A DNA stretch of 63,913 nucleotides from an uncultured Anaerolineae bacterium (GCA_903910795.1 CAIWAX010000251.1:1-63913), one strand, 5' to 3'. Counted from the stretch's first letter, positions 5,441 to 41,610 are shown. Program-made: numbers and translations. Notes: generated by a model from the letters alone, not told the origin.

Positions 5441-5461
5441 CACACGCCCCACCCGCGCAAT

Positions 5462-6469: not shown

Positions 6470-6540
6470 TCCGCTTCACTTCATCGCGCCAGGCAGAAAC
6501 TACAACTGACGCTCTGACATTTACCAGGTAAGGTATTTAT

Positions 6541-8328: not shown

Positions 8329-8348
8329 AATATATTTACCTGTCAAAA

Positions 8349-8900: not shown

Positions 8901-8910
8901 GAGGCCTTGA

Positions 8911-10548
8911 ATGAAATTCAAACGCTCAATGGTTTTGGTTTCGAATGATCCAGAAAGTCTGCGAAAAGGCGCAGCCGACGTATTTCGCGCATTTCAACTG
9001 GAACTCGCCAATTTTGACCTGACAGAAGAAATTTCTCTGACGCAATTTACAGATGGCGGGCGCGAAGACGCTCTTCCGCTTGTGATTGTTTACCCTGAAG
9101 CCTGCGCTTATGGGCCCGTCACCGTTGCCGATGTAAAACGCATCGTTGAAGAACATTTATACAAGGGCCGCCAGGTGGACGATCTATTGGCACCCGTCAA
9201 GGAATTGTCCGGTCGCATCGGTTGGCTGAAAACACGCAAGGGCACCCTTCCGTCCGAAAAACGTGTTGTACTGCGCCGCGCAGGCCGGATTGACCCGGAA
9301 AATATTGATGATTACATCGCTGATGAAGGTTATCAGGCGCTGGCAAAGGCCTTAAGCCTGACCCGCATGCAAGTGATCGAAGAATTGGAAGAAGCAGGAT
9401 TGCAGGGTCGCGGCGGTGCAGGGTTTCCTACCGGCCGAAAGTGGCGCTTCGTGGGTGCTACCAAAAGCCCTAAGAAATATGTTGTATGCAATGCTGACGA
9501 AAGCGAACCCGGTACCTTTAAAGACCGTGTGATTCTGGAAGGTGACCCTCACAGCATCCTGGAAGCCATGGCCATTGCCGGCTTTGCGGTTGGCGCAAAT
9601 GAAGGCTATATCTATGTGCGCGGGGAATACCAGCTTGCCCAGTACCGTCTTGAAAAAGCAATCCACCAGGCCCGCGAAATGGGCTTGCTTGGCGAAAATA
9701 TATTTGAATCGGGATTCAATTTCGATATTCATGTGCACAGCGGCGCCGGAGCTTACGTGTGCGGCGAAGAAACAGCCCTGCTCGAATCCATCGAAGGAAA
9801 ACGCGGCGAACCGCGCGCACGCCCACCCTACCCGACTACTCACGGTCTGTGGGGCAAACCAACCGTTGTCAACAATGTTGAGACTCTCGCCAATGTTCCT
9901 GCGATCATCCTGAACGGCGCCGAATGGTACCGTGGTTTAGGCACGCCATCCAGCCCGGGAACAAAAACCTACACTATTCTCGGAAATGTTAACTTCAAAG
10001 GCCTGATTGAAGTGCCGATGGGCATCACGCTGCGCGAGGTTATCAATATTTATGGGCAAGGTATCGTTCCCGGACAATCGTTCAAAATGGCCCAAACCGG
10101 CGGTTCAAGCGGTTCGATCATTCCGGCCAGTCTTCAGGATACACCCATGGATTTTGAATCGTTCCGCAAAGCGGGTGTCTCGCTGGGCTCCGGTGCGCTC
10201 CTGATCTGTGATGAACGAACTTGCATTGTCGATCTGGCTATCACATTGATGAAGTTCTTCAAGTTTGAATCGTGTGGCAAGTGCACCCCCTGCCGGGTTG
10301 GAACAGACCGCGCCTTGCGCATCCTGACAGCCATCAGTCAGGGTCAAGCTCACCTTGACGACCTGGATACCCTTTTGAAGCTCGCTGATGAGATGGAACT
10401 GGCTTCAAATTGTGGTTTGGGCCAAACCGCAGCGGTACCAATCCGGGACACATTGAAGTATTTCCGCGCCGAAGTTGAAGCACATATCCGCCTGGGCGTG
10501 TGCCCAACTGGTGTGTGTGATATGGCTTCCGAACTCGAAATGGCGTGA
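8911..10548 (+). CDS. hoxF: HoxF/NuoF-like NAD(P)H-binding flavoprotein subunit (no C-terminal ferredoxin domain)
   Basis: 'GRGGAGFPTGRKW', 'CNADESEPGTFKDR' and 'ESCGKCTPCRVG'. It ends without the 2x[4Fe-4S] extension present in 6541-8328. Confidence 0.9.
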   Translation: MKFKRSMVLVSNDPESLRKGAADVFRAFQLELANFDLTEEISLTQFTDGGREDALPLVIVYPEACAYGPVTVADVKRIVEEHLYKGRQVDDLLAPVKELSGRIGWLKTRKGTLPSEKRVVLRRAGRIDPENIDDYIADEGYQALAKALSLTRMQVIEELEEAGLQGRGGAGFPTGRKWRFVGATKSPKKYVVCNADESEPGTFKDRVILEGDPHSILEAMAIAGFAVGANEGYIYVRGEYQLAQYRLEKAIHQAREMGLLGENIFESGFNFDIHVHSGAGAYVCGEETALLESIEGKRGEPRARPPYPTTHGLWGKPTVVNNVETLANVPAIILNGAEWYRGLGTPSSPGTKTYTILGNVNFKGLIEVPMGITLREVINIYGQGIVPGQSFKMAQTGGSSGSIIPASLQDTPMDFESFRKAGVSLGSGALLICDERTCIVDLAITLMKFFKFESCGKCTPCRVGTDRALRILTAISQGQAHLDDLDTLLKLADEMELASNCGLGQTAAVPIRDTLKYFRAEVEAHIRLGVCPTGVCDMASELEMA

Positions 10549-10627
10549 AGCTGATTAAATCAAAAACCTGTAGCGCTTTGAAGAAACCCGGCGCTTATTT
10601 TGCAAGAATGAATTTAGCGAGGTTCTC

Positions 10628-12619
10628 ATGGTTCAACTAACGATTAATGGCAAACAGATCGAAGCTGCGGAAGGAACAACTGTTCTTTCTGCGGCAAAAC
10701 AGGCCGGAATTGAAATTCCAACCCTGTGCGCGCACAAAGAATTGACGCCATTCGGCGGCTGCCGCCTGTGTATTGTGGATGTGCAGGGTTTTCGTGTTCC
10801 GATTGCATCCTGTACGCTGCCAGTCAGCAACGGCATGGTGGTCAACACTGAAACCGAGGCCATCCAAAAGTCGCGCAAGTTTATCCTCTCGATGCTCTTC
10901 AGCGAGCGAAACCATTTCTGCCCATTCTGTCAGGTCAGCGGCGGCGATTGCGAGTTGCAAAACGCGGCTTATGCTGAAGACATGACTCACTGGCCGATGC
11001 AGCCCGGTTGGAATAAATACCCGGTTGACAGTTCCCACCCCTATTATGTGCTCGATAATAACCGCTGTATTTTGTGCAGACGCTGTGTTCGCGCTTGCGG
11101 CGAACTTGTCGGCAACTTTACACTGACCATGGCCGAACGCGGCGCATCCACCCTGGTGGTGGCAGATACCAATGTGCCGCTGGGCGAAAGCACCTGTATC
11201 AAGTGCGGCACCTGCGTGCAGGTCTGCCCAACAGGAGCATTGATCGACCGTACCAGCGCCTACCAGGGGCACGACCTGATGATGTCGGAAATCAAATCTG
11301 TGTGCATCGGTTGCTCTGTAGGGTGCGGTATCAAAATGATCGTGCATGACAATCGCATTGTACGCATTGAAGGCGATTGGGACGCACCTGTGAACCGCGG
11401 GGTTTTGTGCGAACACGGGCGGTATGACCCAATGAATGAAAAAAGAAACCGGATCACAAGCCCGATGTTACGCAAAGACGGCAAGTTGACTCCAGTTTCA
11501 TGGGACGAAGCATTGAGTGTTGTAGCGGATAAACTCAAACCCCTGGCTGGCAAAGAGCATGACGGTCTGGCAGCCCTTGCTTCCACCCGCTTGCCTGTGG
11601 AAGCACTTGCCATGTTCAAGGAATTATTTGCAGACGGTTTCAAAAGCGGCATGGTTACCAGTACTGAAGAAGGTATGACCACCGCCAGCGTCAACGCTGT
11701 CGCGGAAAAAGCAGGCGCTTTTGAAGGTAAACTGGATGTACTGAAAAATGCCGATGTGGTTTTGTGCATCGGCGCGAATGTCGCCAAAAGTCACATGGTG
11801 GCCGGTTTTATGATCAAACGCGCCCTGCCAAAAGGTATGCGCCTGGTAAACATCGATCCTGAAGCCAGCGAGCTGGATGACCTGGCAGATGTCTCGCTCA
11901 CACCCAAAACCGGGAGTGACCTGGCATTGGTGGAAGCCCTACAGGCTGTCATTGTCAAGGAAGGCTTGGGGCGCGCCCCACTTTCCATTCAGAATGCAGA
12001 CGGCTTGATTGAAGCCGGCGTCAATGCCAGCGGCGTGGATGCTGAAACTCTAAGCAGGGTTGCCCGCTTGCTGGCAAATGCTGTCAGCCCGGTGATTCTG
12101 TATGGCAAAGGTGTTACAGCCCAACGAGATGAAAAACTGGTTGAAGCCTTACTGGATTTGGCGAAGCTGACCGGCGCAGTGGATGCCGAACGCTTTGGTC
12201 TTCTATCGGTCAAGGGAGAAGCCAACAGTGTGGCGGCCGCGCAGTTCAACCTCGATAAGCAGTTCGTTTTGAACGGTCAGCAGGCAGTCTATGCGCTCAT
12301 TGGCGATGATTTTGTCTCACGGCGTCTGGCTGAACGATTGAGCAAAGCCCCTTACCTGGTTGTACAGGCGACCTACGCATCATTGGTCACTGAAAAAGCT
12401 GATGTGGTTTTGCCGGCCGCCCTCTGGTCGGAACAAGCCGGCCATTATGTCAACATGGACGGCCGCATCCAAACCGCTGAGAAAGCCATCAATGCACCTG
12501 ATGGCGTGCGGGAAAGTACCACAGTTCTGGCTGAAGTTGCCATGCGTATGAATATGCCGATCAAACAAGATTGGAACACCAGCCTGCGCACACGCAAAGC
12601 CAGTGTAACACTCGCTTAA
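10628..12619 (+). CDS. hoxU: HoxU/NuoG-like Fe-S subunit fused to a molybdopterin-oxidoreductase-like domain
   Basis: N-terminal [2Fe-2S] 'CAHKELTPFGGCRLCIV'. His-ligated cluster 'HFCPFCQVSGGDCELQ'. 2x[4Fe-4S] 'CILCRRCVRAC' and 'CIKCGTCVQVCP'. Then 'CIGCSVGCGI' plus about 400 aa of MopB-like sequence. At 663 aa it is far longer than a minimal HoxU. Confidence 0.85.
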   Translation: MVQLTINGKQIEAAEGTTVLSAAKQAGIEIPTLCAHKELTPFGGCRLCIVDVQGFRVPIASCTLPVSNGMVVNTETEAIQKSRKFILSMLFSERNHFCPFCQVSGGDCELQNAAYAEDMTHWPMQPGWNKYPVDSSHPYYVLDNNRCILCRRCVRACGELVGNFTLTMAERGASTLVVADTNVPLGESTCIKCGTCVQVCPTGALIDRTSAYQGHDLMMSEIKSVCIGCSVGCGIKMIVHDNRIVRIEGDWDAPVNRGVLCEHGRYDPMNEKRNRITSPMLRKDGKLTPVSWDEALSVVADKLKPLAGKEHDGLAALASTRLPVEALAMFKELFADGFKSGMVTSTEEGMTTASVNAVAEKAGAFEGKLDVLKNADVVLCIGANVAKSHMVAGFMIKRALPKGMRLVNIDPEASELDDLADVSLTPKTGSDLALVEALQAVIVKEGLGRAPLSIQNADGLIEAGVNASGVDAETLSRVARLLANAVSPVILYGKGVTAQRDEKLVEALLDLAKLTGAVDAERFGLLSVKGEANSVAAAQFNLDKQFVLNGQQAVYALIGDDFVSRRLAERLSKAPYLVVQATYASLVTEKADVVLPAALWSEQAGHYVNMDGRIQTAEKAINAPDGVRESTTVLAEVAMRMNMPIKQDWNTSLRTRKASVTLA

Positions 12620-12646
12620 CGGTAAAAAAAATCAAAGGAGAGAAAA

Positions 12647-13189
12647 ATGGGTAAACCAAAAATAGCATCTGACTGGATGTGCGGCTGCGCAGGTTGTCAC
12701 ATGTCCCTGCTCGATATGGATGAACGCATTCTGAAAGTGGTTGAGCTCGCCGATCTGCGCTCCACGCCCATCACGGATATGAAAGAACCTGATGCAAGCG
12801 GCGTGGATGTGGGCGTGCTCGAAGGCGCCATCAACAATACCGCTAACGAAGAAGTAGCTCACAAATTCCGCCAGCGCTCCAAGATCCTGGTGGCGCTGGG
12901 CGATTGCGCAGTTTTTGGCGGAGTACCGGCCATGCGCAATTTCTGCGGCGTCAAAGAAGCTTTGCAGCGTGCCTACGTGGATGCTGAAAGTAACGAACCT
13001 GGCAGCCAGATTCCCAATGATCCAGAACTGGCGACGATGACCAAAACCCGCGCTATCCAGGAAGTCGTGCCAGTAGACTATAATGTGCCTGGCTGTCCAC
13101 CGGATGCGGATGTAATCTTTTATGTTTTGAGCGAACTGGCCCAGGGTCGCAAGCCAGTGCTTAAAAACGAATTGCTCCACTGGCATTAG
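12647..13189 (+). CDS. hoxY: [NiFe] hydrogenase small subunit (group 3, HoxY-like)
   Basis: 'WMCGCAGCHMSLLD', 'ALGDCAVFGG' and 'VPGCPP' form the proximal-cluster Cys pattern of the NuoB/HoxY family. Confidence 0.9.
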   Translation: MGKPKIASDWMCGCAGCHMSLLDMDERILKVVELADLRSTPITDMKEPDASGVDVGVLEGAINNTANEEVAHKFRQRSKILVALGDCAVFGGVPAMRNFCGVKEALQRAYVDAESNEPGSQIPNDPELATMTKTRAIQEVVPVDYNVPGCPPDADVIFYVLSELAQGRKPVLKNELLHWH

Positions 13190-13205
13190 GCTGAGGAAAA
13201 AAACG

Positions 13206-14633
13206 ATGACCACACAAAAAATTACCATTGAGCCCGTAACCCGGATTGAAGGCCACGCCAAGGTCACCATCCATATAAAAGAGGATGGATCCGTTGAACA
13301 TGCTTACATGCATGTCAATGAGTTCCGCGGTTTCGAGAAATTCTGCGAAGGGCGTCTGTATTTCGAAATGCCTCAGATCACCCCGCGCATTTGCGGAATC
13401 TGCCCGGTGAGCCATCATCTGGCTGCCGCCAAGGCCTCCGACATGCTGACTGGCCAAACGCCTCCGCGACCGGCCAACTTACTGCGTGAACTGATGCACA
13501 TGGGGCAAATCATTCAGAGCCACGGTATGCACTTCTTTGAACTGGCCGGGCCTGACCTACTGCTGGGCTTTGATGCCAACCCGGAAATCCGGAATGTAGT
13601 TGGGTTGATTGGCGCCAACCCGGAATTGACCGTCAAGGCAGTCATGTTGCGTAAATTCGGCCAGGAGATCATTCATACCCTGGGCGGACGGCGTATTCAT
13701 CCCAATTTTGCTGTTCCGGGCGGCGTCAACAAAGCCTTAAAAGCACCTGAACGCGATACCATCCTGGGTGGCATTGATGCTGCCATCTCCACACTGCAAA
13801 TCGGTTTACAAATCATGAAGGATTGGGCCGAACGCAATATGGAAGACATCAACAAATTCGCTGTCTTCCCCACCGGATACTTCGGCCTGGTAACACCTGA
13901 AAACGGTCTGGAGCTATATGACGGTGATATCCGCCTGATCGATCAGCAAGGCAAGGATCTTGAACGCTTTCGCGGCGAAAAATATCTGGATTACATTACA
14001 GAACATGTTGAACCCTGGTCTTACCTGAAATTTCCCTATTACAAACCGATGGGTTTCCCAGGTGGTGTTTACCGGGTTGGGCCGCTGGGACGTTTGAATA
14101 TTGCCGAGAAAATCGATACCCCGCTAGCCAATGCAGAATTGAAACTTTTCAAGGGTCTTAGTGGCGGCAAACCGGTTGAGAATACACTTTATTACCACTA
14201 TGCTCGTCTGATCGAAGCGTTGTTCGCCACGGAGCGCGTGCGGATTTTGTGCGATGATCCAGACATCCTGAGTACTGATATTCTCAACACCCGCCAGAAT
14301 TTCACCGGGCATGGCGTGGGAGTGATCGAAGCCCCGCGCGGCACACTCATCCACGATTACACCACTGACGAAAACGGCAAGTTGCTCAAGGTTAACTTGA
14401 TTGTCTCCACCGGTCACAACAACTGGGCCATGAGCAACTCGGTTGACAGCGTAGCCAAAACATACGTTCACGGCCCGGATGTTACGCAAGGTATGCTCAA
14501 TCGTGTTGAAGCTGCCATTCGCGCTTATGATCCATGCCTTTCCTGTTCCACACATGCCATTGGACAAATGCCCATCCAACTGGAAATCATCGGCCCCGAA
14601 GGTGATTTGATCAAAACGATCACCCGCGACTAA
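13206..14633 (+). CDS. hoxH: [NiFe] hydrogenase large subunit (group 3, HoxH-like)
   Basis: N-terminal 'RIEGHAKV' and 'RICGICPVSH' (L1/L2). C-terminal 'DPCLSCSTH' Ni-binding motif, followed by a 25-aa tail of the kind removed by the maturation protease. Confidence 0.95.
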   Translation: MTTQKITIEPVTRIEGHAKVTIHIKEDGSVEHAYMHVNEFRGFEKFCEGRLYFEMPQITPRICGICPVSHHLAAAKASDMLTGQTPPRPANLLRELMHMGQIIQSHGMHFFELAGPDLLLGFDANPEIRNVVGLIGANPELTVKAVMLRKFGQEIIHTLGGRRIHPNFAVPGGVNKALKAPERDTILGGIDAAISTLQIGLQIMKDWAERNMEDINKFAVFPTGYFGLVTPENGLELYDGDIRLIDQQGKDLERFRGEKYLDYITEHVEPWSYLKFPYYKPMGFPGGVYRVGPLGRLNIAEKIDTPLANAELKLFKGLSGGKPVENTLYYHYARLIEALFATERVRILCDDPDILSTDILNTRQNFTGHGVGVIEAPRGTLIHDYTTDENGKLLKVNLIVSTGHNNWAMSNSVDSVAKTYVHGPDVTQGMLNRVEAAIRAYDPCLSCSTHAIGQMPIQLEIIGPEGDLIKTITRD

Positions 14634-14665
14634 ACCGATTAGAAATAATAATAGGTTCATTATTT

Positions 14666-16224
14666 GTAACTGCTCAGGCAGCAATTTTTTGAAAAAACAT
14701 TGTCAAAAACACAAAAGTCAGCCACAATATACCAATGGAACCGATGTATCAGTTCACCGAGGAAGATATACGCGCCATCTATCGTTTAGGCGAAGATGAA
14801 ACTGTTGCATTTATCTGGAACATGCTCCAAAATTACAAGACACTGTCAGAGCGCATCCAGAAACTCGAAGATCAAATTGCAAAAAACAGTGGCAATAGCG
14901 GTAAACCACCATCGAGTGACGGCCTGACCAAAAAGACGAAAAGCCTGCGGCACAAGAGTGGCAAAAAGAGTGGTGGTCAGGATGGTCATCCTGGGAGCAC
15001 GTTGAAAGCGGTGGAGCACCCAGATTATGTGGAAAAGCATGACGTGAAGCAGTGCCAACATTGTCATGCGAATTTGGAGCATGTAAAAGCGAAAAGGATC
15101 GAAAAGCGCCAAGTTTTTGACGTACCGCCAACCAAAGTAGAAGTCACCGAACATATTGCGGAAGTCAAAGATTGTCCAACTTGTCATCAGACAACGACGG
15201 GTACCTTTCCGCCAGAAGTCAGCCAGCCTGTGCAATATGGCATCCGGATCAAAGCACAAATGGTGTACTTTAATCAGCAGCACCATATTCCTCTGGAACG
15301 TACAGCAGAAATCATAGAAGACCTTTATGACCAATCGATCAGCGAAGGCACGATTGTGGAAGCCTGCAATCAGATGTCTCAACAGGTTGAGCCTATGATC
15401 GAAGCGATCAAAGAAGAACTGAAAAACACGACCGAAACGGCTCATTTTGATGAAACGGGTGGTCGCATCAATGGGAAGTTGTGGTGGTTTCATGTGGTTT
15501 GCACCGCATTCTTGACTTTGTATGCCATCCATCCAAAACGAGGCAGCAAAGCGTTGAATGAGATTGGCATATTCCCAATATTCAAAGGAACGGCGATGCA
15601 CGATGCCTACTGCTCATACTTTCAATATGAGGCTGTGACCAATGCTCTCTGCAATGCCCATCATTTGCGCGACTTGATTTTTATCGAAGAACAATATCAT
15701 CAAGCCTGGGCCTCTGACATGAAAAAATTACTGCTGGAGATTAAGACAGCTGTTGAAGACTCTCCACCTGAGCAAACTTTCTTGCCGCCAGATCAAATCG
15801 CTGACTTTGAAATCCGTTATGATGCCATTGTTGAGGCTGGGTTGCAGATCAACCCGCTTGCAGAACCGGATTTGACATTGCCAAAGAAACGAGGCAAGCC
15901 CAAGAAGCACCCGGCAAGAAACCTCGCCGAACATCTCAAAGCCAGAAAGCGAGAAACACTGGCTTTTATGGTTGATTTTAAGGTTCCGTTTGATAATAAT
16001 CAAGCTGAACGCGATTTGCGCATGGTCAAACTGAAGCAGAAAGTGTCTGGTTGTTTTCGGTCAGAAGATGGCGCCAAAGTCTTTTCTAACATCCGAAGTT
16101 ACATCTCTACTTCTCGTAAAAACGACCAGAGAGTTCTGGATGTCTTGCAATTGGCATTAGCTGGAATTCCTTATGTTCCGCCGATCCTTCAGGCTCATTT
16201 CTGCCTTTCAGCCTGAGCAGTTAC
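14666..16224 (+). mobile_element. IS66-family insertion sequence (single-ORF type), intact
   Basis: 14-bp perfect terminal inverted repeats: GTAACTGCTCAGGC (14666-14679) and GCCTGAGCAGTTAC (16211-16224). They are flanked by an identical 8-bp direct repeat CATTATTT (14658-14665 and 16225-16232). A GTAA terminus and an 8-bp TSD are hallmarks of IS66. Confidence 0.85.
14735..16216 (+). CDS. IS66-family transposase
   Basis: 493 aa. N-terminal leucine-zipper-like region, zinc-finger 'CQHCHANL...CPTCHQ', 'HFDETGGRINGK', 'CNAHHLRDL' and 'DNNQAERDLRMVKLKQKVSGCFRS' are typical of IS66 TnpC. The stop codon lies inside the right IR. Confidence 0.9.
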   Translation: MEPMYQFTEEDIRAIYRLGEDETVAFIWNMLQNYKTLSERIQKLEDQIAKNSGNSGKPPSSDGLTKKTKSLRHKSGKKSGGQDGHPGSTLKAVEHPDYVEKHDVKQCQHCHANLEHVKAKRIEKRQVFDVPPTKVEVTEHIAEVKDCPTCHQTTTGTFPPEVSQPVQYGIRIKAQMVYFNQQHHIPLERTAEIIEDLYDQSISEGTIVEACNQMSQQVEPMIEAIKEELKNTTETAHFDETGGRINGKLWWFHVVCTAFLTLYAIHPKRGSKALNEIGIFPIFKGTAMHDAYCSYFQYEAVTNALCNAHHLRDLIFIEEQYHQAWASDMKKLLLEIKTAVEDSPPEQTFLPPDQIADFEIRYDAIVEAGLQINPLAEPDLTLPKKRGKPKKHPARNLAEHLKARKRETLAFMVDFKVPFDNNQAERDLRMVKLKQKVSGCFRSEDGAKVFSNIRSYISTSRKNDQRVLDVLQLALAGIPYVPPILQAHFCLSA

Positions 16225-16321
16225 CATTATTTTATTTTGGCCCTAAAGGCGTAAAATAGATAAAATAAATACGCCGTTATCAAAAGGGTTTATCCCACCT
16301 GCAACCAAAAGGAAAAAACTC

Positions 16322-16768
16322 ATGACAATCGTTCGAAAATTGCTCAATGAAAAATCAGATTCAACAGTTTACGCAGTTGCGTCCACCAGCACCGTTTTGG
16401 ATGCGCTCAAGGCCATGATCGAAGCCAATACTGGCGCAATTTTGGTCAGCGAAGGAAACAAAATCGTTGGCATTTTCACTGAACGTGATTATGCACGCCA
16501 GGGTGAGATTAAAGGCCGCGCTGCCCAGGATACCCTGATCAGCGAGGTGATGACCAAGGAAATGGTCATGGTTAAACCTGAAACATCAGTTCGCCAGTGC
16601 GTTGATTTGATGAGCAGATACAAAGTCCGCCATTTACCTGTGCTGGAAAATGAGCATGTGATTGGTGTTGTCTCCCTGCGCCGCCTCGCTGAAGCACTGG
16701 TTGATGAACAGAAAGGCACCATCACCGAATTGGAAAACTACATCATGGGGACAGGCTACGGTCGATAA
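16322..16768 (+). CDS. CBS-pair domain protein
   Basis: Two CBS motifs ('TGAILVSEGNKIVGIFTERDYAR', 'VRHLPVLENEHVIGVVSLRRLAE'). Confidence 0.8.
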   Translation: MTIVRKLLNEKSDSTVYAVASTSTVLDALKAMIEANTGAILVSEGNKIVGIFTERDYARQGEIKGRAAQDTLISEVMTKEMVMVKPETSVRQCVDLMSRYKVRHLPVLENEHVIGVVSLRRLAEALVDEQKGTITELENYIMGTGYGR

Positions 16769-16771
16769 ATT

Positions 16772-17254
16772 TTGAACCGTATTCTGTTAATTGGTTTTGG
16801 AAACCCAGACCGGCAGGATGATGGTTTGGCATGGCACATTCTCCAGGCATTTGCCGGGAAGATGGGTTTGCCTGTTCCGCTGAGTTATGAAGATGAATTT
16901 CCGGAAAACAATCACCTGGATTTCGCATTTAATTTACAGCTTACTCCGGAAATGGCCGAAGACATCAGCAAATATGAATGCGTGGTTTTTGTAGACGCGC
17001 ATACCGGTGATATCCCTGAGCCAGTCCGCCTGATAGAAGTTGAAAGCGAATTCCAGCGCTCGCCTTTCACCCATCATCTGACTCCGCAGTCTTTGCTGGC
17101 GATGTGTGAAACAATTTACAATAAAAAGCCCCGGGCTGCATTGCTTTCAGTCCGGGGCTATAAATTTGGTTTTGATCGGGAGCTGTCTGAGATGAGCAGG
17201 GCGCTTGTACCCGAGGCTGTTAATTTGATCGAAGATTGGCTCTCGGGGTTTTAA
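16772..17254 (+). CDS. hoxW: [NiFe] hydrogenase maturation endopeptidase (HoxW/HycI family)
   Basis: 'ILLIGFGNPDRQDDGLAWH' and 'VVFVDAHTG' are the conserved metal-ligand regions of hydrogenase maturation proteases. TTG start as in the ORF track. Confidence 0.85.
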   Translation: MNRILLIGFGNPDRQDDGLAWHILQAFAGKMGLPVPLSYEDEFPENNHLDFAFNLQLTPEMAEDISKYECVVFVDAHTGDIPEPVRLIEVESEFQRSPFTHHLTPQSLLAMCETIYNKKPRAALLSVRGYKFGFDRELSEMSRALVPEAVNLIEDWLSGF

Positions 17255-28457: not shown

Positions 28458-28913
28458 CTATTTTGGTGTCCACTCTCCACTTTTTACAAAACTGCCATCC
28501 TGGGCATAAATCTCATAAACCAGATCCATCGGAAAAGCTTTAGAGAGCATGGTTTGAGCCGGACAGTATTTCAGCGCCGAAAGCTCGATGGCTCGCAACA
28601 ACGCGGACTCTTCGATATTCTTCCCTGTAACTTTATAAAGGATGCGGGCATGCGTGAAAACATGAGGGTGAGTTTCGGGCTGGCTGGCCTGAACCTGAAC
28701 TTCAAAAGCGGTGACTTCCTGCTGCTTTTTACGCAGAATTGACATCACATCCATCGAAGTACAGCCCGCCAGACTGATAGCCATTAATTCCAATGGGTAA
28801 AAACCGTCATTTTGCCCACCCACAGAAGGATCTGTACCCAGGGGCACATTAAACCCTGATCCGGCTGTGCCGGTAAAACTCATTCCCTGACTCCAGGTTA
28901 CTTTGGCATCCAT
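28458..28913 (-). CDS. OsmC/Ohr-family peroxiredoxin-like protein
   Basis: 'LAGCTSMDVMSIL' and 'ALKYCPA' are the two conserved Cys contexts of OsmC. Confidence 0.85.
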   Translation of the reverse strand: MDAKVTWSQGMSFTGTAGSGFNVPLGTDPSVGGQNDGFYPLELMAISLAGCTSMDVMSILRKKQQEVTAFEVQVQASQPETHPHVFTHARILYKVTGKNIEESALLRAIELSALKYCPAQTMLSKAFPMDLVYEIYAQDGSFVKSGEWTPK

Positions 28914-29003: not shown

Positions 29004-29603
29004 TTACGGCTGGTTGATGATGGGTGTGACATATTTTTCAAGATTTTCCTGGCTGATTGGGCCAGTCCAGGTTAAGATCACCTGGCCTTTTCGGTTAATC
29101 AAAAATGAAGTCGGGAGCACCTGTGACTTAAAAGCTGTGGTTGCCACCCAGTTAGGGTCTGGCCAAACCGGAAAAGTAAGGCCGTTGGCTTTGACATAAT
29201 CAGCCACTTCCGAGCGGGGCTCGCCATCTTCAATGGCTACAACTGCAAATCCATCCTGGCGATGCGCCTGGTAATAAGCGTTCAAAGTGGGCATTTCTTC
29301 TTTGCAGGGTGGGCACCAGGTTGCCCAGGCGTTATACAAAACAACCTGACCTTGAAAATTCGACAAAGCCACAGGTTGATTATCCAAGTCGGTCAGCCTG
29401 ACATCCGGCGCCGGAAAATCAACCGCGATGGGCATGGCGGAGTTTGTAACCTGCTGTATTTCTGTTTGCGCCTTTGGAATAGAAAGAAATGCAGCAATCG
29501 CCACAAGGATCAATCCGGCGCCAATCACCAGAAGAATCATGCTTTGGGGTTTATTTCTGGAATTTCGCCCACCGCCGCGCGAGGGGAGTTTTTCTTCGGT
29601 CAT
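29004..29603 (-). CDS. TlpA/ResA-like membrane-anchored thiol:disulfide oxidoreductase
   Basis: N-terminal TM helix and a thioredoxin fold with 'WATWCPPCKEEMP'. Confidence 0.85.
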   Translation of the reverse strand: MTEEKLPSRGGGRNSRNKPQSMILLVIGAGLILVAIAAFLSIPKAQTEIQQVTNSAMPIAVDFPAPDVRLTDLDNQPVALSNFQGQVVLYNAWATWCPPCKEEMPTLNAYYQAHRQDGFAVVAIEDGEPRSEVADYVKANGLTFPVWPDPNWVATTAFKSQVLPTSFLINRKGQVILTWTGPISQENLEKYVTPIINQP

Positions 29604-29609: not shown

Positions 29610-30329
29610 TTACTTTACTCCGGTACGCATCAATTCAGCCAGGAAGTTTTGTTCAGGATATGCGCCTACTACACGTCCAACACCCTCATTGATTACCGTA
29701 TCGGGAACAGAACTGATGCCGTATTTTTCAGAAATTTCGTTGAAATCCATCGCGCCAACGCCTTCTGCCAGTACCATGGCGGGGTTTTCCATAGCAATTC
29801 GGTGCGCAAGCAGCACGGCTTGCGGGCAATATGGTCAGGTGGGAGTTACAAAGACTTCCAAATGCAACGGTTTCGCCAGACCCTTTATATACTTGCGGGT
29901 TTGAGGGGAAAGACCGGAATCGCGCCCAGATACCAGCAGAAGATCATTAATCAATGTTGCGAATTCATGTCCAGCCGGTATTCCCAGAATGCGGATGCCA
30001 TAATCTGTCACCTGGTTTGATTCTTTACCGAACTTAAGGGTACTTTCCATGGCAGCGATCACGATGGCAGGCGCCTTGTCCTGTACCTTATAAAGACTGG
30101 CCAGGTCTGCATGCTCTCCAATGTCAAAAACTGATAAAGACAACAAATCTGAAAGCTCAACCACTTCTTCGAGTAGCTGCTGAGTTGGTTCGCAAGTTTC
30201 CTGTTTATCTTTGGAAGTGAACAATAAAACCTGCACAGGGTTGGTTAGTTTTCCAAACAACTGACCTACCTGGGCAATCAAATCATCTGTCAGAAATTTT
30301 TCCATATTTTTTCCTTTTGATGTATTCAT
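29610..30329 (-). CDS. Two-domain thioredoxin-fold (glutaredoxin-like / PDO-like) protein with in-frame TGA at the redox motif: candidate selenoprotein (U-P-Y-C)
   Basis: ORFs 29835-30329 and 29610-29816 are in the same frame, separated only by TGA (29835-29837). The read-through gives '...HLEVFVTPT-U-PYCPQAVLLAHRIAMENP...'. The TGA therefore sits exactly where the first Cys of the CPYC motif is expected. A 7-bp hairpin begins 11 nt downstream. Confidence 0.6.
29805..29824 (-). promoter_or_regulatory. SECIS-like hairpin downstream of the in-frame UGA
   Basis: mRNA reads UGA-CCAUAUUGCC-[CGCAAGC-CGUGCU-GCUUGCG]. The stem is 7 bp and perfect. The 6-nt apical loop contains GU, with its G at +19 from the UGA. 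Confidence 0.45.
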
Positions 30330-30362: not shown

Positions 30363-30584
30363 TCAAGTACAGCCAGCCCCAGACCCTTCGCTGTAACCGC
30401 ATGCTGGACATTCCAGATCCAGCAGCCCATTGTAATCCAACCTGCCAACCTCACAACGAGGACAGGCTTCCCCACGCCGTACAGGCGCGCGCCCGTGTTT
30501 CACATCTTCCAAATCACTCGATACCGAACTTATGGGTACTTTCCATTGCGTCAAAACCAATGAAGTCCTGGTAATTTGCTCCAT
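30363..30584 (-). CDS. Possible small zinc-ribbon protein (start uncertain)
   Basis: The C-terminal half has 'CPRCEVGRLDYNGLLDLECPACG' (CxxC...CxxC). The N-terminal 25 aa of the ORF-track model are a translation of the 24-nt dispersed repeat. A shorter product from an internal TTG/GTG is therefore more likely, if the gene is real. Confidence 0.3.
   Translation of the reverse strand: MEQITRTSLVLTQWKVPISSVSSDLEDVKHGRAPVRRGEACPRCEVGRLDYNGLLDLECPACGYSEGSGAGCT
30523..30546 (-). repeat. Dispersed 24-nt motif, copy 2 (ATGGAAAGTACCCATAAGTTCGGT)
   Basis: 23/24 identical to copy 1. Minus orientation, upstream of the minus-strand candidate selenoprotein gene. Confidence 0.8.
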
Positions 30585-30595: not shown

Positions 30596-30874
30596 TCAAC
30601 TTTCATGTGCCCTGCGGGTGGGCTTTATTAAATCATCAAGTTTTAGAGTATTGAACAATCGACCTCGCACATCTTCCGGCAACGCCGTTTCATTCGCAAC
30701 AGTCTGATACAGATAAATCGTACGGGTGGTGGTATCAAATACCAACCGGCAGTTTTCACAACCGGACATATGACTGCGAAGTTTTTCGCAAGTTTCATCG
30801 TCAAGTCCGCCATCAATAAATTCTGAAAGGTTCCCCAATAAATCCCTGCACTCCAAACCATGTTCGTGAATCAT
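30596..30874 (-). CDS. Anti-sigma factor, zf-HC2 (ZAS) type
   Basis: 'HGLECRDLLGNLSEFIDGGL...SHMSGCENCR' gives an H-x3-C-x2-C-type zinc motif. The start overlaps the stop of the sigma-factor gene (ATGA). Confidence 0.75.
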   Translation of the reverse strand: MIHEHGLECRDLLGNLSEFIDGGLDDETCEKLRSHMSGCENCRLVFDTTTRTIYLYQTVANETALPEDVRGRLFNTLKLDDLIKPTRRAHES

Positions 30875-31494
30875 TTTTTATTCTCCTGGCGCAATCTCTC
30901 GCCAAAATACGCCGATAACTTCTCACGCAATTGCAGCCGGGCACGTAAAAGACGGGTCTTAACCGCTGTTTCTGTCAAACCAAGCGCTTCACCAGTGTCT
31001 CGAATAGATAACCCTTCGATATCACGCATTAGAAAGACGGCACGCAGCCTGACAGGCAAACTTCGAATGGCCTTTTCAAGCTGGGTGCGAGCTTCAACAT
31101 CCAACAAATCGCCTTCAGGTAATTTGGTCCAATCTGCCAGTTCATGCGGTTGAAAAGAATCACCTTCATCATCTGATTTTTCCTCATCGAGGGAAACCGA
31201 GGCATCTTTGCGCCGCATCAACATCAAAGCTTCGTTGGTGGCAACCCTGTAAAGCCAGGTGGACAGGCTTGAACGCCCTTCAAATTCGCCGAGATGCTGG
31301 AAGGCTTTAACGAATGTAATTTGCAGCACATCCTCCGCATCCTGCTGATTGCCCAACATTTGAAGTGCCAACCGGTAAATGGATACGGAAAATGATTCCA
31401 CCAGCCGGGCAAATTCTACGCGATCGCCGGCTCGCAATAATTCAAGAGAAAATTCAGCAACTGTTTCCATTAATTTAGATGTTCGACCATTCAA
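30871..31494 (-). CDS. ECF (sigma-70 group 4) RNA polymerase sigma factor
   Basis: Region 2 'DAEDVLQITFVKAFQHL...STWLYRVATNEALM'. Region 4 'RAVFLMRDIEGLSIRDTGEALGLTETAVKTRLLRARLQLR'. Confidence 0.9.
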   Translation of the reverse strand: MNGRTSKLMETVAEFSLELLRAGDRVEFARLVESFSVSIYRLALQMLGNQQDAEDVLQITFVKAFQHLGEFEGRSSLSTWLYRVATNEALMLMRRKDASVSLDEEKSDDEGDSFQPHELADWTKLPEGDLLDVEARTQLEKAIRSLPVRLRAVFLMRDIEGLSIRDTGEALGLTETAVKTRLLRARLQLREKLSAYFGERLRQENKK

Positions 31495-36077: not shown

Positions 36078-36109
36078 AGGCCTGGCTTAAAATAAGCCAG
36101 GCCTATTTT
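36078..36109 (+). terminator. Intrinsic terminator (likely the riboswitch expression platform)
   Basis: AGGCCTGGCTTA-aaa-TAAGCCAGGCCT is a 12-bp perfect stem followed by ATTTT. It lies between the aptamer and the ATG at 36138. Confidence 0.65.
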
Positions 36110-36137
36110 GCTTAAAAAATGCACTTTGGAGAAAGCC

Positions 36138-38003
36138 ATGAAAACAAGTCATAACAACCCACTTTCCCGTTTCCTGATGCTCACACTTGTTATCGCATTC
36201 ATGTTTGCGTTGACCGGCGCCAAACCTGCCCAGGCAATTGAAAACCAGGCATCTTATATTATTCAAGCTTCAAGCACCGATCTGGCTGCTTCACTGGTTA
36301 CGAAAGTCGGAGGCGAAATAACCTCCCAACTGGATATCATCCAGGGTGTGGCAGCAAATTTGACACCGAGTGAAGTTGCCAATCTGCGTTCCGAAAAAGA
36401 CATTGTTGCAATTACGCCCAATGGCCCGGTGAAATCCAGCGACAATTCCAAGGCCGGAACCCAATCTATCAATGACAGCCAGAACAATAATGTACCCACC
36501 ACAGATTATCCAGATGTGACAGGCGCAAATCTGGTATGGGAAAAGGGTGATATTGGCGATAACGTGACAGTTGCAATTCTGGATACCGGTATATCCAATA
36601 TGAGCCAATTCAAAGATGGTAGCAGTAACAACAGCCGAGTCATCGCTTGGAAGGATTATATTGATAGAAGTAGAAATCCTATTGACCCTAACGGCCACGG
36701 CACGCATGTTGCTGGTATCATCGCCAACGGCCAACAAGGCAGCGATGGCGAATATAATGGCATGGCGCCAAGTGCAAATATCGCCGCAGTACGTGTGTTG
36801 GACTCCACGGGCGCCGGAACGTACGAAACGGTGATCAACGGTCTGCAATGGGTCATTCAGAACAAAGCCGCCTATAACATCCGTGTCGTCAATCTGTCGC
36901 TGGTTTCACCTGCTGTGTCACCCTATTGGGCCGATCCCTTGGATCAGGCTGTCACCGCTGCCTGGGCAAACGGGCTGGTTGTGATCGTGGCAGCCGGTAA
37001 TGGCGGGCCAAACCCGATGAGCATCAGCGTGCCCGGCAATAATCCCTACGCCATCACCGTCGGAGCCTTCACAGATAATTACACTCCTGCCAACTGGGAT
37101 GATGACTATATTCCTGATTTTTCGGCGGCTGGCCCGACACTGGATGGTTTTGCAAAACCAGACCTGGTTGCCCCCGGAGGTCATATCGTTTCGCTGATAC
37201 CACAAAATTCATATCTGTCTAACCAGTATCCGGATAATTTAGTTGGCGCCAACTATTTCAAACTGGCTGGCACCTCCCAAGCCACCGCGATTGTCTCAGG
37301 TATCGCAGCTTTGGCGCTCTCGAAGAACCCCAGTCTATCAAATGATCAAGTGAAGTTGCGGCTCACAGCCACTGCCCTGCCCTGGGTGGACAACTCCAGC
37401 AATCCCAATGTCTCCAGTATTTGGCAACAGGGGGCAGGTCGGGCCAACGCTTATGATGCGGTTTTTGCAAAAACAAGCGAAATGGCAAACAAGGGTATGA
37501 ACTCACGAAATGACCTGAATGGGGGCCAACACTACGCAGGCTATTCTTATTACGATAAAAGCACAGCCAGCTTCCGCCTTTACGCTCCGTATGATAACTG
37601 GGATAATGGCTACAGTTCATGGTCAAGTGGACATGGTTCATGGTCAGGTGGACATGGTTCATGGTCAGGTGGACATGGTTCGTGGTCAGGCGGTCATGGT
37701 TCATGGTCGGGCGAATACGGTTCGTGGTCAGGTGGTCATGGTTCATGGTCTGGCGGTCAAGGTTCCTGGTCGGGTGGGCATGGCTCATGGTCTGGTGATT
37801 TTCAAACATGGTCGGGTGGACACGGCTCATGGTCCGGTGGTTATACCAGTTGGGCAGGTGGACACGGCTCGTGGTCAGGCACTGAACCCTGGACAGGTTC
37901 TCAGCTTGCGAACTCAGCTTTCATGAAGAACTTTGCCGATGGGGTAAGCCCAAGCATTTCCATCGCCACAGCAACTATTTCAATTTATCTGCTCGACCAG
38001 TAA
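36138..38003 (+). CDS. Secreted subtilisin-like (S8) serine peptidase with C-terminal GHGSWSG heptad-repeat region
   Basis: Signal peptide 'LMLTLVIAFMFALTGAKPAQA'. Catalytic motifs 'VAILDTGI' (Asp), 'GHGTHVAGI' (His) and 'GTSQATAIVSG' (Ser). ATG at 36138 chosen because it lies downstream of the terminator. Confidence 0.85.
   Translation: MKTSHNNPLSRFLMLTLVIAFMFALTGAKPAQAIENQASYIIQASSTDLAASLVTKVGGEITSQLDIIQGVAANLTPSEVANLRSEKDIVAITPNGPVKSSDNSKAGTQSINDSQNNNVPTTDYPDVTGANLVWEKGDIGDNVTVAILDTGISNMSQFKDGSSNNSRVIAWKDYIDRSRNPIDPNGHGTHVAGIIANGQQGSDGEYNGMAPSANIAAVRVLDSTGAGTYETVINGLQWVIQNKAAYNIRVVNLSLVSPAVSPYWADPLDQAVTAAWANGLVVIVAAGNGGPNPMSISVPGNNPYAITVGAFTDNYTPANWDDDYIPDFSAAGPTLDGFAKPDLVAPGGHIVSLIPQNSYLSNQYPDNLVGANYFKLAGTSQATAIVSGIAALALSKNPSLSNDQVKLRLTATALPWVDNSSNPNVSSIWQQGAGRANAYDAVFAKTSEMANKGMNSRNDLNGGQHYAGYSYYDKSTASFRLYAPYDNWDNGYSSWSSGHGSWSGGHGSWSGGHGSWSGGHGSWSGEYGSWSGGHGSWSGGQGSWSGGHGSWSGDFQTWSGGHGSWSGGYTSWAGGHGSWSGTEPWTGSQLANSAFMKNFADGVSPSISIATATISIYLLDQ
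37615..37880 (+). repeat. 21-bp in-frame tandem repeat array (about 13 units) encoding (G-H-G-S-W-S-G)n
   Basis: Read directly: ggacatggttcatggtcaggt and variants. Protein reads 'SWSSGHGSWSGGHGSWSGGHGSWSGGHGSWSGEYGSWSGGHGSWSGGQGSWSGGHGSWSGDFQTWSGGHGSWSGGYTSWAGGHGSWSG'. Confidence 0.9.
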
Positions 38004-38142: not shown

Positions 38143-41100
38143 TTAAAGCTTCATTGTTTCTAATTTCTGCAGGTCAAGGCTGGCGCCAAGCTGCTCAAAC
38201 AACACTTGAGCTTCGGCAATGCACTCTTTCGCCAGGATAGGTTTGGATTCGGCAACCGCCAGACGAGCCATGGCTGCCAGTAGGCGACCGCTTTCGAGAT
38301 GATTTCCAACTACCTTAAATGTTTTATCAGCCTGAAGATAGTATGACTTGGCATTCTGGTAATTACCCATCTTTTGAGAAATATCACCTAACACAACTAA
38401 CGCACGCCCTTTATCTTCAGTTTGCTCGTCACCAGTCAGACGCTGCCGCAAACTTAGAGCCTGTTCAGCATATTCAGAGGATTTCTTAAATTCCTGCGTG
38501 CCCAAATAAATGGCGCTGAGATTTACAGAAACATCCACCACGAAATCTTCATCACCCAGGCTTCTTAAAAGCCTTTCGCTATTCAAGCTGTATTCCAGGG
38601 CTTTCGGCCAGTTTTCCTGGACCATATACAATTTGCCAAGGTAATTGGAAACCAGGGCAATATGATGACCGTGTCCAATTTCCTGGGCGCGGTGCCAGGC
38701 TTCTTCCAGGTATTTAGAAGCTTCATCCAAATAGCCGCGGTCAATTTCCAGCAAGCCCATGTTGCTGTTCAATTCTATGATGCCTTCCGCATCCCCCAGG
38801 TTTACCTGGTATTCAGCGCTTCTTTTGAAATTAAGCAAGGCATTATCCCAAAAGCCGCGTTTCCAACTGAGCAACCCGAGGTTGTTATAAGAACGTGCAA
38901 CGCCAGGGATATCACCAATTTCCTTGCGCAGAGACAGGCTTTTTGCAGCAAAATCGCTGGCTTCCTTGAGCCGGTCTTTCTGAAAATAGACACCACCCAG
39001 ACGATTATAGATAGATGACACAACCTCAAGGCGGGTGGTTTCTTCTGCCAGAGTTTGCGCCTGTACCAGAAAATTTTCAGCCTCATCCAAACGACCACGG
39101 CGGAAAAATATCCAACCAGTGTCATTCAAAATTTGAGAAAGCTCAGCCGGGGAATTCACTCCCGCCCTTTGAAGTACTTGTTTGGCATCCTCCAGGCATT
39201 TCAAAGCTTGATCGTAATCACCCTGGCGTTCAAAAGTCATCCCAATTTTGCGCTGCAGCTCACAGGCAGTTTCGGGGTTTGAATCCTGTGCAGATTGAAT
39301 AGCTTTCGCCGCCTGCTGATAAGCGGCGCGAGCAGCAGGATAGTCACCTGCCAACGCCCTGGCATCGCCCAAACCGCTATAAACCTGAACAATTTGCTGT
39401 GGGGTGGGGTGCGCCTCAACAAGCACAAGCAGGGCATCTTCAAAATATTTCTGAGATTGGCTGGTATTGAAGTTTCGGCCAGCTTTTTGTCCGGCCAGAA
39501 TAAGATAATGTAAAGCCCGATCTTTATAATCGCTCCAGAAATAATGGCGCGCCAGAATATCAATCTGGTTTTCCAGATTATCAAAGGAAGCGCTTTCAAT
39601 GGTGTTTGCTACCAGTCCATGCAGTTCCTTACGCTCGCGCTTAAGCAGAGTACTGTAAATCGTTTCTGAAACAAGCACATGTTTATACATGTATTCACCG
39701 CCCGGGGACGGATCCGGTAGGATGAATTCACGTTCAAGCAGAACACTAAGCGCCATTTTCGATTCGTCTTCTTCGAGGTTGGGCAGGCAACCCACCAGCA
39801 GTTGACGGGTAAAAGTGCGGCCAATCACGCTGGCAACTTTGAGAATATGGCGCTGCACCGGCTCCAGGGTATCAAAACGGGTCAGCACCAGACCTTCGAG
39901 AGTATCGGGCACACCCAGGTTTTTCAGATCGATGGCTTTTTTAAGCTGCCAGTGCCCCTCTTCACGCACCAATAAATTTCGATCCATCAACATGCGTAAA
40001 ATTTCTTCCAGGTAGAATGGAATACCAGATGCCCTGTGAACAATATCATTTCGCAAACTTTCGGGCATGTCGTGAATGGATGTCAACTGTGAGAGCAACC
40101 GGTCTGCCTGATCCGGTGAAAGACTTTTTAACGGGAGATCCGTAAAGCGCAGTCGTAATAGATCAGAAGCGCGTTGCGTGATATCAACAAGTTTTCCTTC
40201 TGAAAACGAGCGTGAGACAGCCACAATCGCGATCGGGTTTTTAACCAGGGAATCGAGCAAGTAATCAATCAACTGAAGCGAGCCTTCATCCGCCCAATGT
40301 AAGTCTTCAAGGATCAAAACAATGGGCCGAAGGTTGGAATCCGCAATCAATATATCACGCACTGAAAGGAAAATTTGCTGCTGCAGTTGGTCTGCCGCCA
40401 GGAATTCGATGCGCCGGGATGCATTTGGATCAGAAAGCGGCAAAGAGAGAAAATGTTCCAGGTATGGCAGAATATCATCAACCCGTTCGGGCAAAACATG
40501 TTCGATATGTTCGCGTAAGCGGATCTGACATTCTGACTTTGAGGTTTCCACATCCAGTTCAAGCATGTGGAAAAAAGCATCTTGAAAAAGCCAATAGGCT
40601 ACGCCTTTGCGAAAAACCAGGCTGGCGCCCTCTAGCAACTGGATAGGTAATTGAGATACGGCTGATTTGAATTCAGAGATGAGGCGGCTTTTACCAATAC
40701 CGGCTTCACCGTGCACAATTACAAAACGGCCGGTTTCTGAATTTAGCATGGCAGTCACGGTCTGGCGAAGACGTTCAAGTTCGCCATCCCGGCCAATCAT
40801 AGGAGCGTAAAGGCCCTCTATTCCGCGCACAGAGCCCGGCTTTGTCAGGGCACCCAAAACTCGATAAGTCTGAACAGGTTGAGCAATGCCTTTCAACGCG
40901 ATCCGTGGCAACGTTTCGAAGCTGAAAAGAGCTCGAACCTGGCGATATACAACATCGCTTACCAGGGTTTCTCCGGCTGCGGCGGCTGTTTCAATACGGC
41001 TGGATAGATTGACCACATCGCCAATTGCCGTATAGTTCATCATCATATTGGAGCCAATGCCACCCACGATGACGCTGCCAGAGTTCATCCCGATATGCGC

Positions 41101-41610
41101 TTTTATTTTGGTACCGAGTTTGCCTTCCAGTGAATCGCTTAGTTTCGCAAGCTCAGCCTGCATATCCAGCGCGGCTCTAATGGCAAGTTCGGCGTTGTTC
41201 TCATGAGCGATGGGCGCGCCAAATAACGCCATCAAACCATCACCGGTAAATTTATCTACGATTCCATCATATTTGTAAACGTTGTTTGCAAACATTTTAG
41301 AACACTGTTGAACCAGGTCATACAGCTCTTCACTATCGATTTGTTCGGAGATATGGGTAAATTCAGAAAGATCAACAAAAAGAACGGTCACCTGGCGCCG
41401 TTGACCAGCCGCCTCCAGCCCCGCCTGGCGGAAACGATCGAGCAGATCGGCCCCGATCATGACCCCCAGCTTGTTTGTCGATTCAGTATCTGCCAGATGT
41501 TCACTGGAAGCCATCATGCCAGTTGTAAGCAGGCGCAGTCCGCAGTTACCGCAAAAGCGCATGTTATCTGGATTTACAAAACCGCAGTTTCTACATTGAT
41601 TTGGCATCAC
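38143..41610 (-). CDS. Zinc-ribbon + class III adenylate/guanylate cyclase + AAA(STAND-like) ATPase + TPR-repeat signalling protein
   Basis: 'CRNCGFVNPDNMRFCGNCG'. Cyclase core 'VTVLFVDLSEFT...KFTGDGLMALFGAP...GMNSGSVIVGGIG'. P-loop 'HGEAGIGKS'. Long C-terminal TPR array. Confidence 0.85.
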   Translation of the reverse strand: MMPNQCRNCGFVNPDNMRFCGNCGLRLLTTGMMASSEHLADTESTNKLGVMIGADLLDRFRQAGLEAAGQRRQVTVLFVDLSEFTHISEQIDSEELYDLVQQCSKMFANNVYKYDGIVDKFTGDGLMALFGAPIAHENNAELAIRAALDMQAELAKLSDSLEGKLGTKIKAHIGMNSGSVIVGGIGSNMMMNYTAIGDVVNLSSRIETAAAAGETLVSDVVYRQVRALFSFETLPRIALKGIAQPVQTYRVLGALTKPGSVRGIEGLYAPMIGRDGELERLRQTVTAMLNSETGRFVIVHGEAGIGKSRLISEFKSAVSQLPIQLLEGASLVFRKGVAYWLFQDAFFHMLELDVETSKSECQIRLREHIEHVLPERVDDILPYLEHFLSLPLSDPNASRRIEFLAADQLQQQIFLSVRDILIADSNLRPIVLILEDLHWADEGSLQLIDYLLDSLVKNPIAIVAVSRSFSEGKLVDITQRASDLLRLRFTDLPLKSLSPDQADRLLSQLTSIHDMPESLRNDIVHRASGIPFYLEEILRMLMDRNLLVREEGHWQLKKAIDLKNLGVPDTLEGLVLTRFDTLEPVQRHILKVASVIGRTFTRQLLVGCLPNLEEDESKMALSVLLEREFILPDPSPGGEYMYKHVLVSETIYSTLLKRERKELHGLVANTIESASFDNLENQIDILARHYFWSDYKDRALHYLILAGQKAGRNFNTSQSQKYFEDALLVLVEAHPTPQQIVQVYSGLGDARALAGDYPAARAAYQQAAKAIQSAQDSNPETACELQRKIGMTFERQGDYDQALKCLEDAKQVLQRAGVNSPAELSQILNDTGWIFFRRGRLDEAENFLVQAQTLAEETTRLEVVSSIYNRLGGVYFQKDRLKEASDFAAKSLSLRKEIGDIPGVARSYNNLGLLSWKRGFWDNALLNFKRSAEYQVNLGDAEGIIELNSNMGLLEIDRGYLDEASKYLEEAWHRAQEIGHGHHIALVSNYLGKLYMVQENWPKALEYSLNSERLLRSLGDEDFVVDVSVNLSAIYLGTQEFKKSSEYAEQALSLRQRLTGDEQTEDKGRALVVLGDISQKMGNYQNAKSYYLQADKTFKVVGNHLESGRLLAAMARLAVAESKPILAKECIAEAQVLFEQLGASLDLQKLETMKL

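Follow-up and report, generated by a model that had tools for sequence, protein, structure and literature searches.

The stretch of DNA analysed here, in the following called the window, comprises 63,913 nucleotides from an uncultured Anaerolineae bacterium (GCA_903910795.1 CAIWAX010000251.1:1-63913). On its minus strand two open reading frames (ORFs) follow each other in the same frame and are parted by a single TGA, and this raises the question of whether the codon ends a gene, as TGA does elsewhere in the window, or is read as an amino acid, and if so as which one. On the basis of sequence comparison we consider it highly probable, at about 0.9, that the in-frame TGA is the selenocysteine (Sec) codon of an oxidoreductase with two thioredoxin folds and that it is accompanied by a selenocysteine insertion (SECIS) hairpin. 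A selenocysteine-containing thioredoxin-fold protein had been proposed as a candidate in an earlier note on this DNA, and the proposal is now supported by the protein family, by the existence of Sec- and Cys-containing orthologs, by conservation of the hairpin and by purifying selection downstream of the TGA.

Gene, reading frame and start codon

Translation of the minus strand from 30329 to 29610 yields 239 codons with one internal stop (...LHLEVFVTPT*PYCPQAVLLAHRIA...), which confirms the arrangement of two same-frame ORFs separated by one TGA. The internal stop is the TGA at 29837..29835 in the context FVTPT-[TGA]-PYC. The gene is assigned to 29610..30305 on the minus strand, with 231 codons and a stop codon, as judged from the translation, the family model TIGR02187.2, the match to the structure 1A8L and the start of its homologs. 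The proposed UGA selenocysteine codon (29835..29837, minus strand) replaces the first cysteine of the C-terminal CPYC motif, which would thereby become U-P-Y-C.

Two ATG codons come into consideration as start of the gene. The upstream one is located at 30329, and the second one at 30305 (MEKFL...) is probably the true start, because a Shine-Dalgarno-like AAGGA, read from the sequence at 30312..30316 on the minus strand, lies 6 nt upstream of it and because the homologs as well as the gene-called 156-aa product P0001 begin there. The joined product of 239 codons described earlier is thus correct for the frame opened at 30329, but the protein made from the probable start would have 231 residues. 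Gene callers break the gene into the 156-aa ORF (P0001) and a 55-aa ORF. TGA is the usual terminator within the window, where it ends 19 of the 52 long ORFs including the adjoining sigma and anti-sigma genes, in agreement with what had been stated about its ordinary use as a stop.

Protein family and redox motifs

With the TGA translated as C for scoring, the joined protein reaches 230.1 bits (cutoff 185) against the NCBIfam model TIGR02187.2 (PDO_seleno_TRX), an equivalog model named 'protein disulfide oxidoreductase', and residues 17-235 align to positions 4-208 of the 209 profile positions. The protein disulfide oxidoreductase (PDO) of P. furiosus, 1A8L, matches the joined protein over its full length (E = 1.8e-39), and the active-site segment FVTPTCPYCP is identical in 1A8L if the TGA is read as Cys. 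Full-length sequence alignments were also obtained with the solved PDOs 1J08 and 2YWM, which predicts two tandem thioredoxin folds within about 220 aa. Stand-alone thioredoxins of the TIGR00411 type with 80-85 aa were matched as well (1FO5, 1NHO). The protein is accordingly classified, by similarity, as a predicted stand-alone oxidoreductase of the family of PDOs and AhpF N-terminal domains, with two thioredoxin folds.

The PDO of P. furiosus and the archaeal and Aquifex PDOs (1J08, 2YWM, 2AYT, 2HLS) are likewise composed of two thioredoxin-fold units. The solved PDOs use Cys and carry a CxxC motif in both units, whereas the window protein has QETC in the first and UPYC in the second. This degenerate N-terminal motif is encoded at 30192..30203 on the minus strand, where most orthologs have CxYC; its first Cys is missing only in the window protein and in the ortholog L001 (QEIC). 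As the first unit contains QETC, a complete redox site is found in the second unit only (UPYC), an arrangement shared with the N-terminal domain of AhpF. A coupling between loss of the N-terminal CxxC and the use of Sec was considered and rejected, since the motif is kept by 18 of the 20 Sec forms, and it is also kept by nearly all Cys forms. The window protein furthermore contains a 7-residue insertion, MESTLKF, that is absent from L001 and from all other orthologs.

Similarity to the AhpF N-terminal domain (1ZYN, 1HYU, 4O5Q) is weaker but significant, with E-values of 1e-8 to 1e-10. This domain, which passes electrons on to a peroxidase, resembles the window protein in having tandem thioredoxin folds of which only the second contains a redox-active CxxC. 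In AhpF, however, it is fused to a flavoprotein reductase domain, whereas the window protein stands alone. Moreover, no AhpC gene adjoins the window gene, its neighbours being a TlpA-like redoxin gene and an OsmC gene.

Selenocysteine and cysteine orthologs

When species-representative genomes were scanned, 80 Anaerolineae/Chloroflexota loci were obtained, the window's own species not being among them, and the closest of these is 62% identical to the window protein. TGA was found at exactly this codon in 18 of the 80 loci and TGC or TGT in the remainder; the fraction of Sec forms is possibly underestimated, because one of the two search patterns contained a Cys codon. The set used for comparison consists of 20 distinct TGA forms (the window and 19 other species) and 62 TGC/TGT forms, so that both the Cys- and the Sec-containing orthologs that an alignment had been expected to reveal were obtained. 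Alignment A2, which contains 14 Cys-form homologs, has an invariant Cys of these homologs in the TGA column, within the motif TPT-C-P[YH]-C; the placement of the TGA at the first Cys of CPYC is thereby verified, as it aligns exactly with the otherwise invariant Cys of CP[YH]C.

The two forms are interleaved, and the nearest pair of a Sec form and a Cys form (L020 and L021) is 87% identical. Fitch parsimony on a neighbour-joining tree with 20 Sec tips among 82 requires at least 13 changes of state, a count that is rough because the protein is short.

The hairpin downstream of the UGA

From the stop onward the mRNA reads UGA-CCAUAUUGCC-CGCAAGC-CGUGCU-GCUUGCG, which was found by folding to form a perfect stem of 7 bp with a loop of 6 nt; the stem, loop and distance of 11 nt described earlier were thus reproduced on the sequence and by folding. 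The putative SECIS hairpin occupies 29805..29824 on the minus strand, with the 5' arm CGCAAGC at 29824..29818, the loop CGUGCU at 29817..29812 and the 3' arm GCUUGCG at 29811..29805. The conserved core is formed by the inner 6 bp and the loop (29823..29806). Between UGA and hairpin lies the 10-nt spacer CCAUAUUGCC (29825..29834, minus strand), which encodes P-Y-C of the UxxC motif. Its length is constant in all 20 Sec forms, the hairpin beginning at the 11th nucleotide after the UGA.

Taken alone, the window hairpin has a folding energy of -10.4 kcal/mol (z = -1.45), which was equalled by 17 of 200 shuffled sequences. In the single sequence it is therefore not beyond chance, and its significance comes from the comparison of orthologs only. 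The hairpin is present in each of the 20 distinct TGA forms and follows the pattern C-GC[A/G/C][A/G]GC for the 5' side, CGUG[C/U/G]U for the loop and GCU[U/C/G]GC for the 3' side. Of the seven stem positions, 6-7 are paired in 19 of the 20 Sec forms, whereas for 61 Cys forms the median is 4 (Mann-Whitney p = 1e-8); the Sec form L065, which has its stem in a slightly shifted register, scores 3/7 in the fixed register. The mean hairpin energy is -10.1 kcal/mol in Sec forms versus -5.9 kcal/mol in Cys forms. Of all the evidence, this contrast between Sec and Cys orthologs carries the most weight. In the alignment of Sec forms the six inner pairs are paired in 95-100%. One stem pair covaries (G-C, n=12; A-U, n=6; C-G, n=1) and is the only one with two-sided changes, while a second one varies between A-U and G-U. 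The observed covariation score was reached by none of 500 column shuffles, and sliding the partners by 1-3 columns lowers pairing from 87% to 12-56%. The covarying pair is formed in 95% of the Sec forms compared to 37% of the Cys forms.

The codon usage within the hairpin follows the same division. For the Ala-Val pair of the loop all Sec forms (20/20) use GCC-GUG, compared to 8/62 Cys forms (Fisher p = 5e-13), and for Arg the Sec forms have no codons other than CGA and CGG, whereas Cys forms mostly have CGC or CGT. Such a constraint on synonymous sites, present only together with the TGA codon, is the mark of an RNA element whose function is linked to the UGA. About 4/7 of the hairpin pairs are already favoured by the peptide P-[RQ]-A-V-x-L-A itself. 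Five Cys forms (L021, L022, L023, L070 and L083) have 6/7 hairpin pairs and energies of about -10 to -12 kcal/mol, and these near-intact hairpins may be relic SECIS elements left by a recent replacement of Sec by Cys. As the peptide alone accounts for the pairing of about four positions, however, the change between Sec and Cys may have run in either direction.

For E. coli, the minimal SECIS was described as an upper stem-loop located 11 nt from the UGA with a G and a U exposed in the apical loop (PMC8659212). The conserved 6-bp stem of the window element starts at nucleotide 15, counting the U of UGA as 1, and in its loop CGUGNU the residues G22 and U23 are invariant; the suggested bacterial SECIS geometry thus agrees with the E. 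coli minimal SECIS in spacing and in the G-U of the loop. The SECIS of E. coli fdhF likewise is a hairpin within the coding sequence with 11-nt placement and an apical-loop G-U. It has a bulged U in its 5' arm, whereas the window element is a perfect helix of 6-7 bp with no bulge. The window element is thus predicted to work like the fdhF SECIS without being a copy of it, putatively by recruiting SelB. A search against Rfam with permissive E-values returned no SECIS family and only matches at chance level.

Selenocysteine machinery and decoding of the UGA

When practically all long ORFs of the 64-kb window were scanned with NCBIfam models, no selA, selB or selD gene was detected, and no tRNA-Sec was found in the window or in the 19 Sec-form loci. 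Sel genes are also absent from 10 kb of gene calls beyond the left end of the window, and none of selA, selB, selD and tRNA-Sec was found in the flanks of the other Sec loci. SelB was reported in single-cell genomes of Anaerolineales and in Anaerolinea thermophila (PMC4959059), and this occurrence in the lineage, together with the comparative pattern of the hairpin and the TGA, supports Sec competence indirectly.

The lack of sel genes and of tRNA-Sec within the window would also suit a read-through of another kind, in which near-cognate or suppressor decoding places Trp, Cys or Arg at the UGA and the hairpin acts as stimulator, and it is established that downstream structures can favour read-through in general. 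This is nevertheless very unlikely here. The codon stands at the catalytic Cys of the CxxC motif in a family with catalogued Sec members, the hairpin has bacterial SECIS geometry with a conserved G-U loop, TGA is a normal stop for 19/52 of the window genes, and Anaerolineales relatives carry SelB.

Equally improbable is that the halves are separate genes, i.e., that a 156-aa N-terminal domain is followed by a small thioredoxin-like subunit translated from an internal GTG or ATG (e.g., at 29816). A GTG-initiated ORF of 68 aa does exist at 29816..29610, and the stand-alone thioredoxins of 80-85 aa mentioned above (1FO5, 1NHO; TIGR00411) set a precedent for such a subunit. However, the small product would be without a whole UxxC/CxxC motif, and the six codons from the UGA to the GTG (PYCPQA) are conserved. 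Two-gene homologs, raised earlier as a possible objection, were not seen: each homolog is encoded by one full-length gene (about 221-224 aa), the Cys forms being single proteins of 221-224 aa. A split gene would also leave the covariation of the hairpin and the fixed 11-nt spacing without a role.

For the preferred reading, i.e., selenocysteine insertion, the following mechanism is proposed. One cytoplasmic thiol-disulfide oxidoreductase of 231 residues with two thioredoxin folds would be produced, in which the attacking Cys of the C-terminal CPYC would be exchanged for selenocysteine. The UGA at 29837..29835 would be decoded by Sec-tRNA(Sec) brought by SelB, and SelB would in turn be recruited by the hairpin 11 nt after the UGA that shows G and U in its loop, as in the standard bacterial mechanism with a SECIS inside the coding sequence.

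Recurrence of the TGA and selection past it

The 156-aa product that ends at the TGA was called on at least 18 contigs, which stem from unrelated samples of ENA, JGI and Logan, and on each of those 18 contigs it is followed by a small thioredoxin-like ORF. In five of the 18, which were those read at DNA level, the TGA and the hairpin are identical to those of the window. The ortholog L001, which shows 91% identity across the aligned protein, keeps the TGA and the identical hairpin, and synonymous sites flanking the hairpin differ between L001 and the window. Over the 74 codons after the TGA, window and L001 show dS of 0.47 and dN of 0.033, i.e., a dN/dS of 0.07, which indicates that the part after the TGA is translated and under strong purifying selection. 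In every TGA form the frame continues intact past the TGA, with no second stop and no frameshift, and the products have 217-231 aa. The presence of the TGA in independent assemblies and in 19 other species means that it is neither a read error nor a one-off pseudogene, and the possibility that 29835-29837 is in truth TGC or TGT, raised earlier, is thereby ruled out.

That a nonsense mutation from TGC/TGT to TGA inactivated a Cys-type PDO gene, or that the TGA is an assembly or sequencing error, would fit the 156-aa and 55-aa ORFs of the gene callers and the fact that no Sec machinery is visible in the window, but is scarcely credible given the truncated product on 18 contigs from independent samples with the TGA read in five, the TGA at this codon in 19 additional species that show no later stop or frameshift, the downstream dN/dS of 0.07 and the hairpin-specific synonymous constraint that is found only in TGA forms.

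Gene neighbourhood and proposed function

The selenoprotein gene is part of a cluster on the minus strand. At its head an ECF sigma factor (30871..31494; Pfam Sigma70_r2/r4_2) and a zf-HC2 (ZAS-type) anti-sigma factor (30596..30874; Pfam PF13490) are encoded, both in conserved synteny. Between the anti-sigma and PDO genes lies a small Cys-rich zinc-ribbon-like ORF (CPRC...CPAC; 30363..30584), for which other assemblies have a gene call of 65 aa and which tblastn located at the corresponding place in 10/19 of the Sec loci and 20/62 of the Cys loci. Downstream of the PDO gene follows a gene for a TlpA/redoxin-like, membrane-anchored thiol-disulfide oxidoreductase with a WCPPC motif (29004..29603; Pfam AhpC-TSA/Redoxin), which adjoins the PDO gene in 13/19 of the Sec loci and in 30/62 of those with Cys. 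The cluster ends with an OsmC-family gene of the hydroperoxide reductase type (28458..28913; Pfam OsmC), kept in 16/19 Sec loci and 48/62 Cys loci. The context of TlpA, OsmC and an ECF sigma/ZAS pair described earlier is confirmed by these Pfam assignments. The order ECF sigma, zf-HC2 anti-sigma, zinc-ribbon ORF, PDO, TlpA-like, OsmC is found in most related loci, with Sec and with Cys alike, and this shared order shows that the Sec and the Cys genes are true orthologs. The related contig L001 carries at 2189-3007 a DDE transposase together with extra genes (Ser/Thr kinase, LiaF-like) between the AlkZ-related and the cNMP-binding/NifU genes, which are adjacent in the window.

From this neighbourhood it is assumed that the oxidoreductase would belong to a regulon for thiol/oxidative stress under the control of the ECF sigma/zinc anti-sigma pair. 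The product probably hands reducing equivalents to peroxidase or redoxin partners, for which the OsmC and TlpA-like proteins of the cluster are candidates. Systems of PDO with thioredoxin reductase and the electron transfer from AhpF to AhpC serve as analogy for the proposed shuttling. By this analogy, and as judged from the gene neighbourhood only, the most likely role of the selenoprotein is to carry reducing equivalents to such partners when the cell is under thiol or oxidative stress.

Other features of the window

Among the same-frame ORF pairs joined by a TGA, no other credible selenoprotein gene was found in the window or in the flanks of the related loci. The only other candidate pair in the window, located on the plus strand (4838-6025, joined by a TGA at 5438), was rejected as two ordinary adjacent genes for a HoxE/NuoE-like 2Fe-2S protein and a HATPase-domain protein; it constitutes a negative control for the heuristic of searching TGA-joined ORFs. 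One public assembly instead calls a 368-aa ORF on the minus strand at 4928-6034, which has no family match and is probably spurious.

The region 4838-17254 encodes a soluble NAD(P)-linked [NiFe] hydrogenase cluster. It comprises a NuoE/HoxE-like, two NuoF-like and a NuoG/HoxU-like protein with a molybdopterin-type domain, as well as a VhuG-like small subunit, a VhuA-like large subunit and a maturation protease, with an IS66-family transposase (14735-16216) located between the genes of the large subunit and the protease. The VhuA-like large subunit was considered as a selenoprotein and rejected, as it ends in DPCLSCSTH and is of the Cys type.

A contractile-injection-system or phage-tail-like cluster is located on the minus strand at 43399-63814, encoding a baseplate assembly protein, a VgrG-related spike, CIS1/CIS5-like inner-tube and adaptor proteins and a phage tail domain protein, with a CDC48/IteA-like AAA ATPase at the contig end. 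On the same strand, 38143-41610 encodes a protein of 1155 aa with TPR repeats and partial similarity to a kinase/cyclase fusion of TOMM systems, adjoined by a gene for a mycosin/subtilisin-like protease (36108-38003).

Relation to known selenoproteins and significance

The TIGR02187 family is among the known prokaryotic selenoproteins, with the motif UxxC (PMC13188914; also PMC9312934, PMC1794560). In a survey of 2006 it was described for Carboxydothermus hydrogenoformans and Symbiobacterium thermophilum (PMC1794560), and it was also reported in Asgard archaea (PMC13188914); ABB15282.1 is a catalogued example (PMC13188914). With the catalogued PDO_seleno_TRX selenoproteins the window protein shares the HMM family, the UxxC at the C-terminal redox site, the pairs of Sec and Cys orthologs and a SECIS within the coding sequence after the UGA. 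It differs from them in the location of its gene in an ECF-sigma/ZAS cluster and in the degenerate N-terminal motif (QETC). The host lineage, Anaerolineae/Chloroflexota, is not mentioned for the PDO_seleno_TRX family in the reviews (PMC13188914, PMC9312934).

The window gene is thus a genuine addition to a known selenoprotein family and represents no new mechanism or family. Members of the family have been catalogued as selenoproteins since the mid-2000s, and the name of the NCBI model itself carries 'seleno'; because the family was already known to include selenoproteins, the finding amounts to a correction of annotation and not to a new kind of system. The correction matters for the protein catalogues of uncultured Anaerolineae, from which the selenoprotein is missing because gene callers split the gene, and recognising the selenoprotein sets this annotation right. 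It would further imply selenium use by the organism, which would then have to possess the Sec machinery. The locus also provides a well-sampled case of Sec/Cys interchange at a CxxC motif, with 20 Sec and 62 Cys orthologs at one syntenic locus and a clearly defined SECIS. More tentatively, at slightly below even odds, the PDO of this Anaerolineae stress cluster would have switched between Sec and Cys many times using the same SECIS within the coding sequence, and the lineage of the window would additionally have lost the N-terminal CxxC, so that one selenol-thiol site is left. If this is true, the locus would be a natural system for studying gain and loss of Sec at a CxxC motif and a possible effect of selenium availability.
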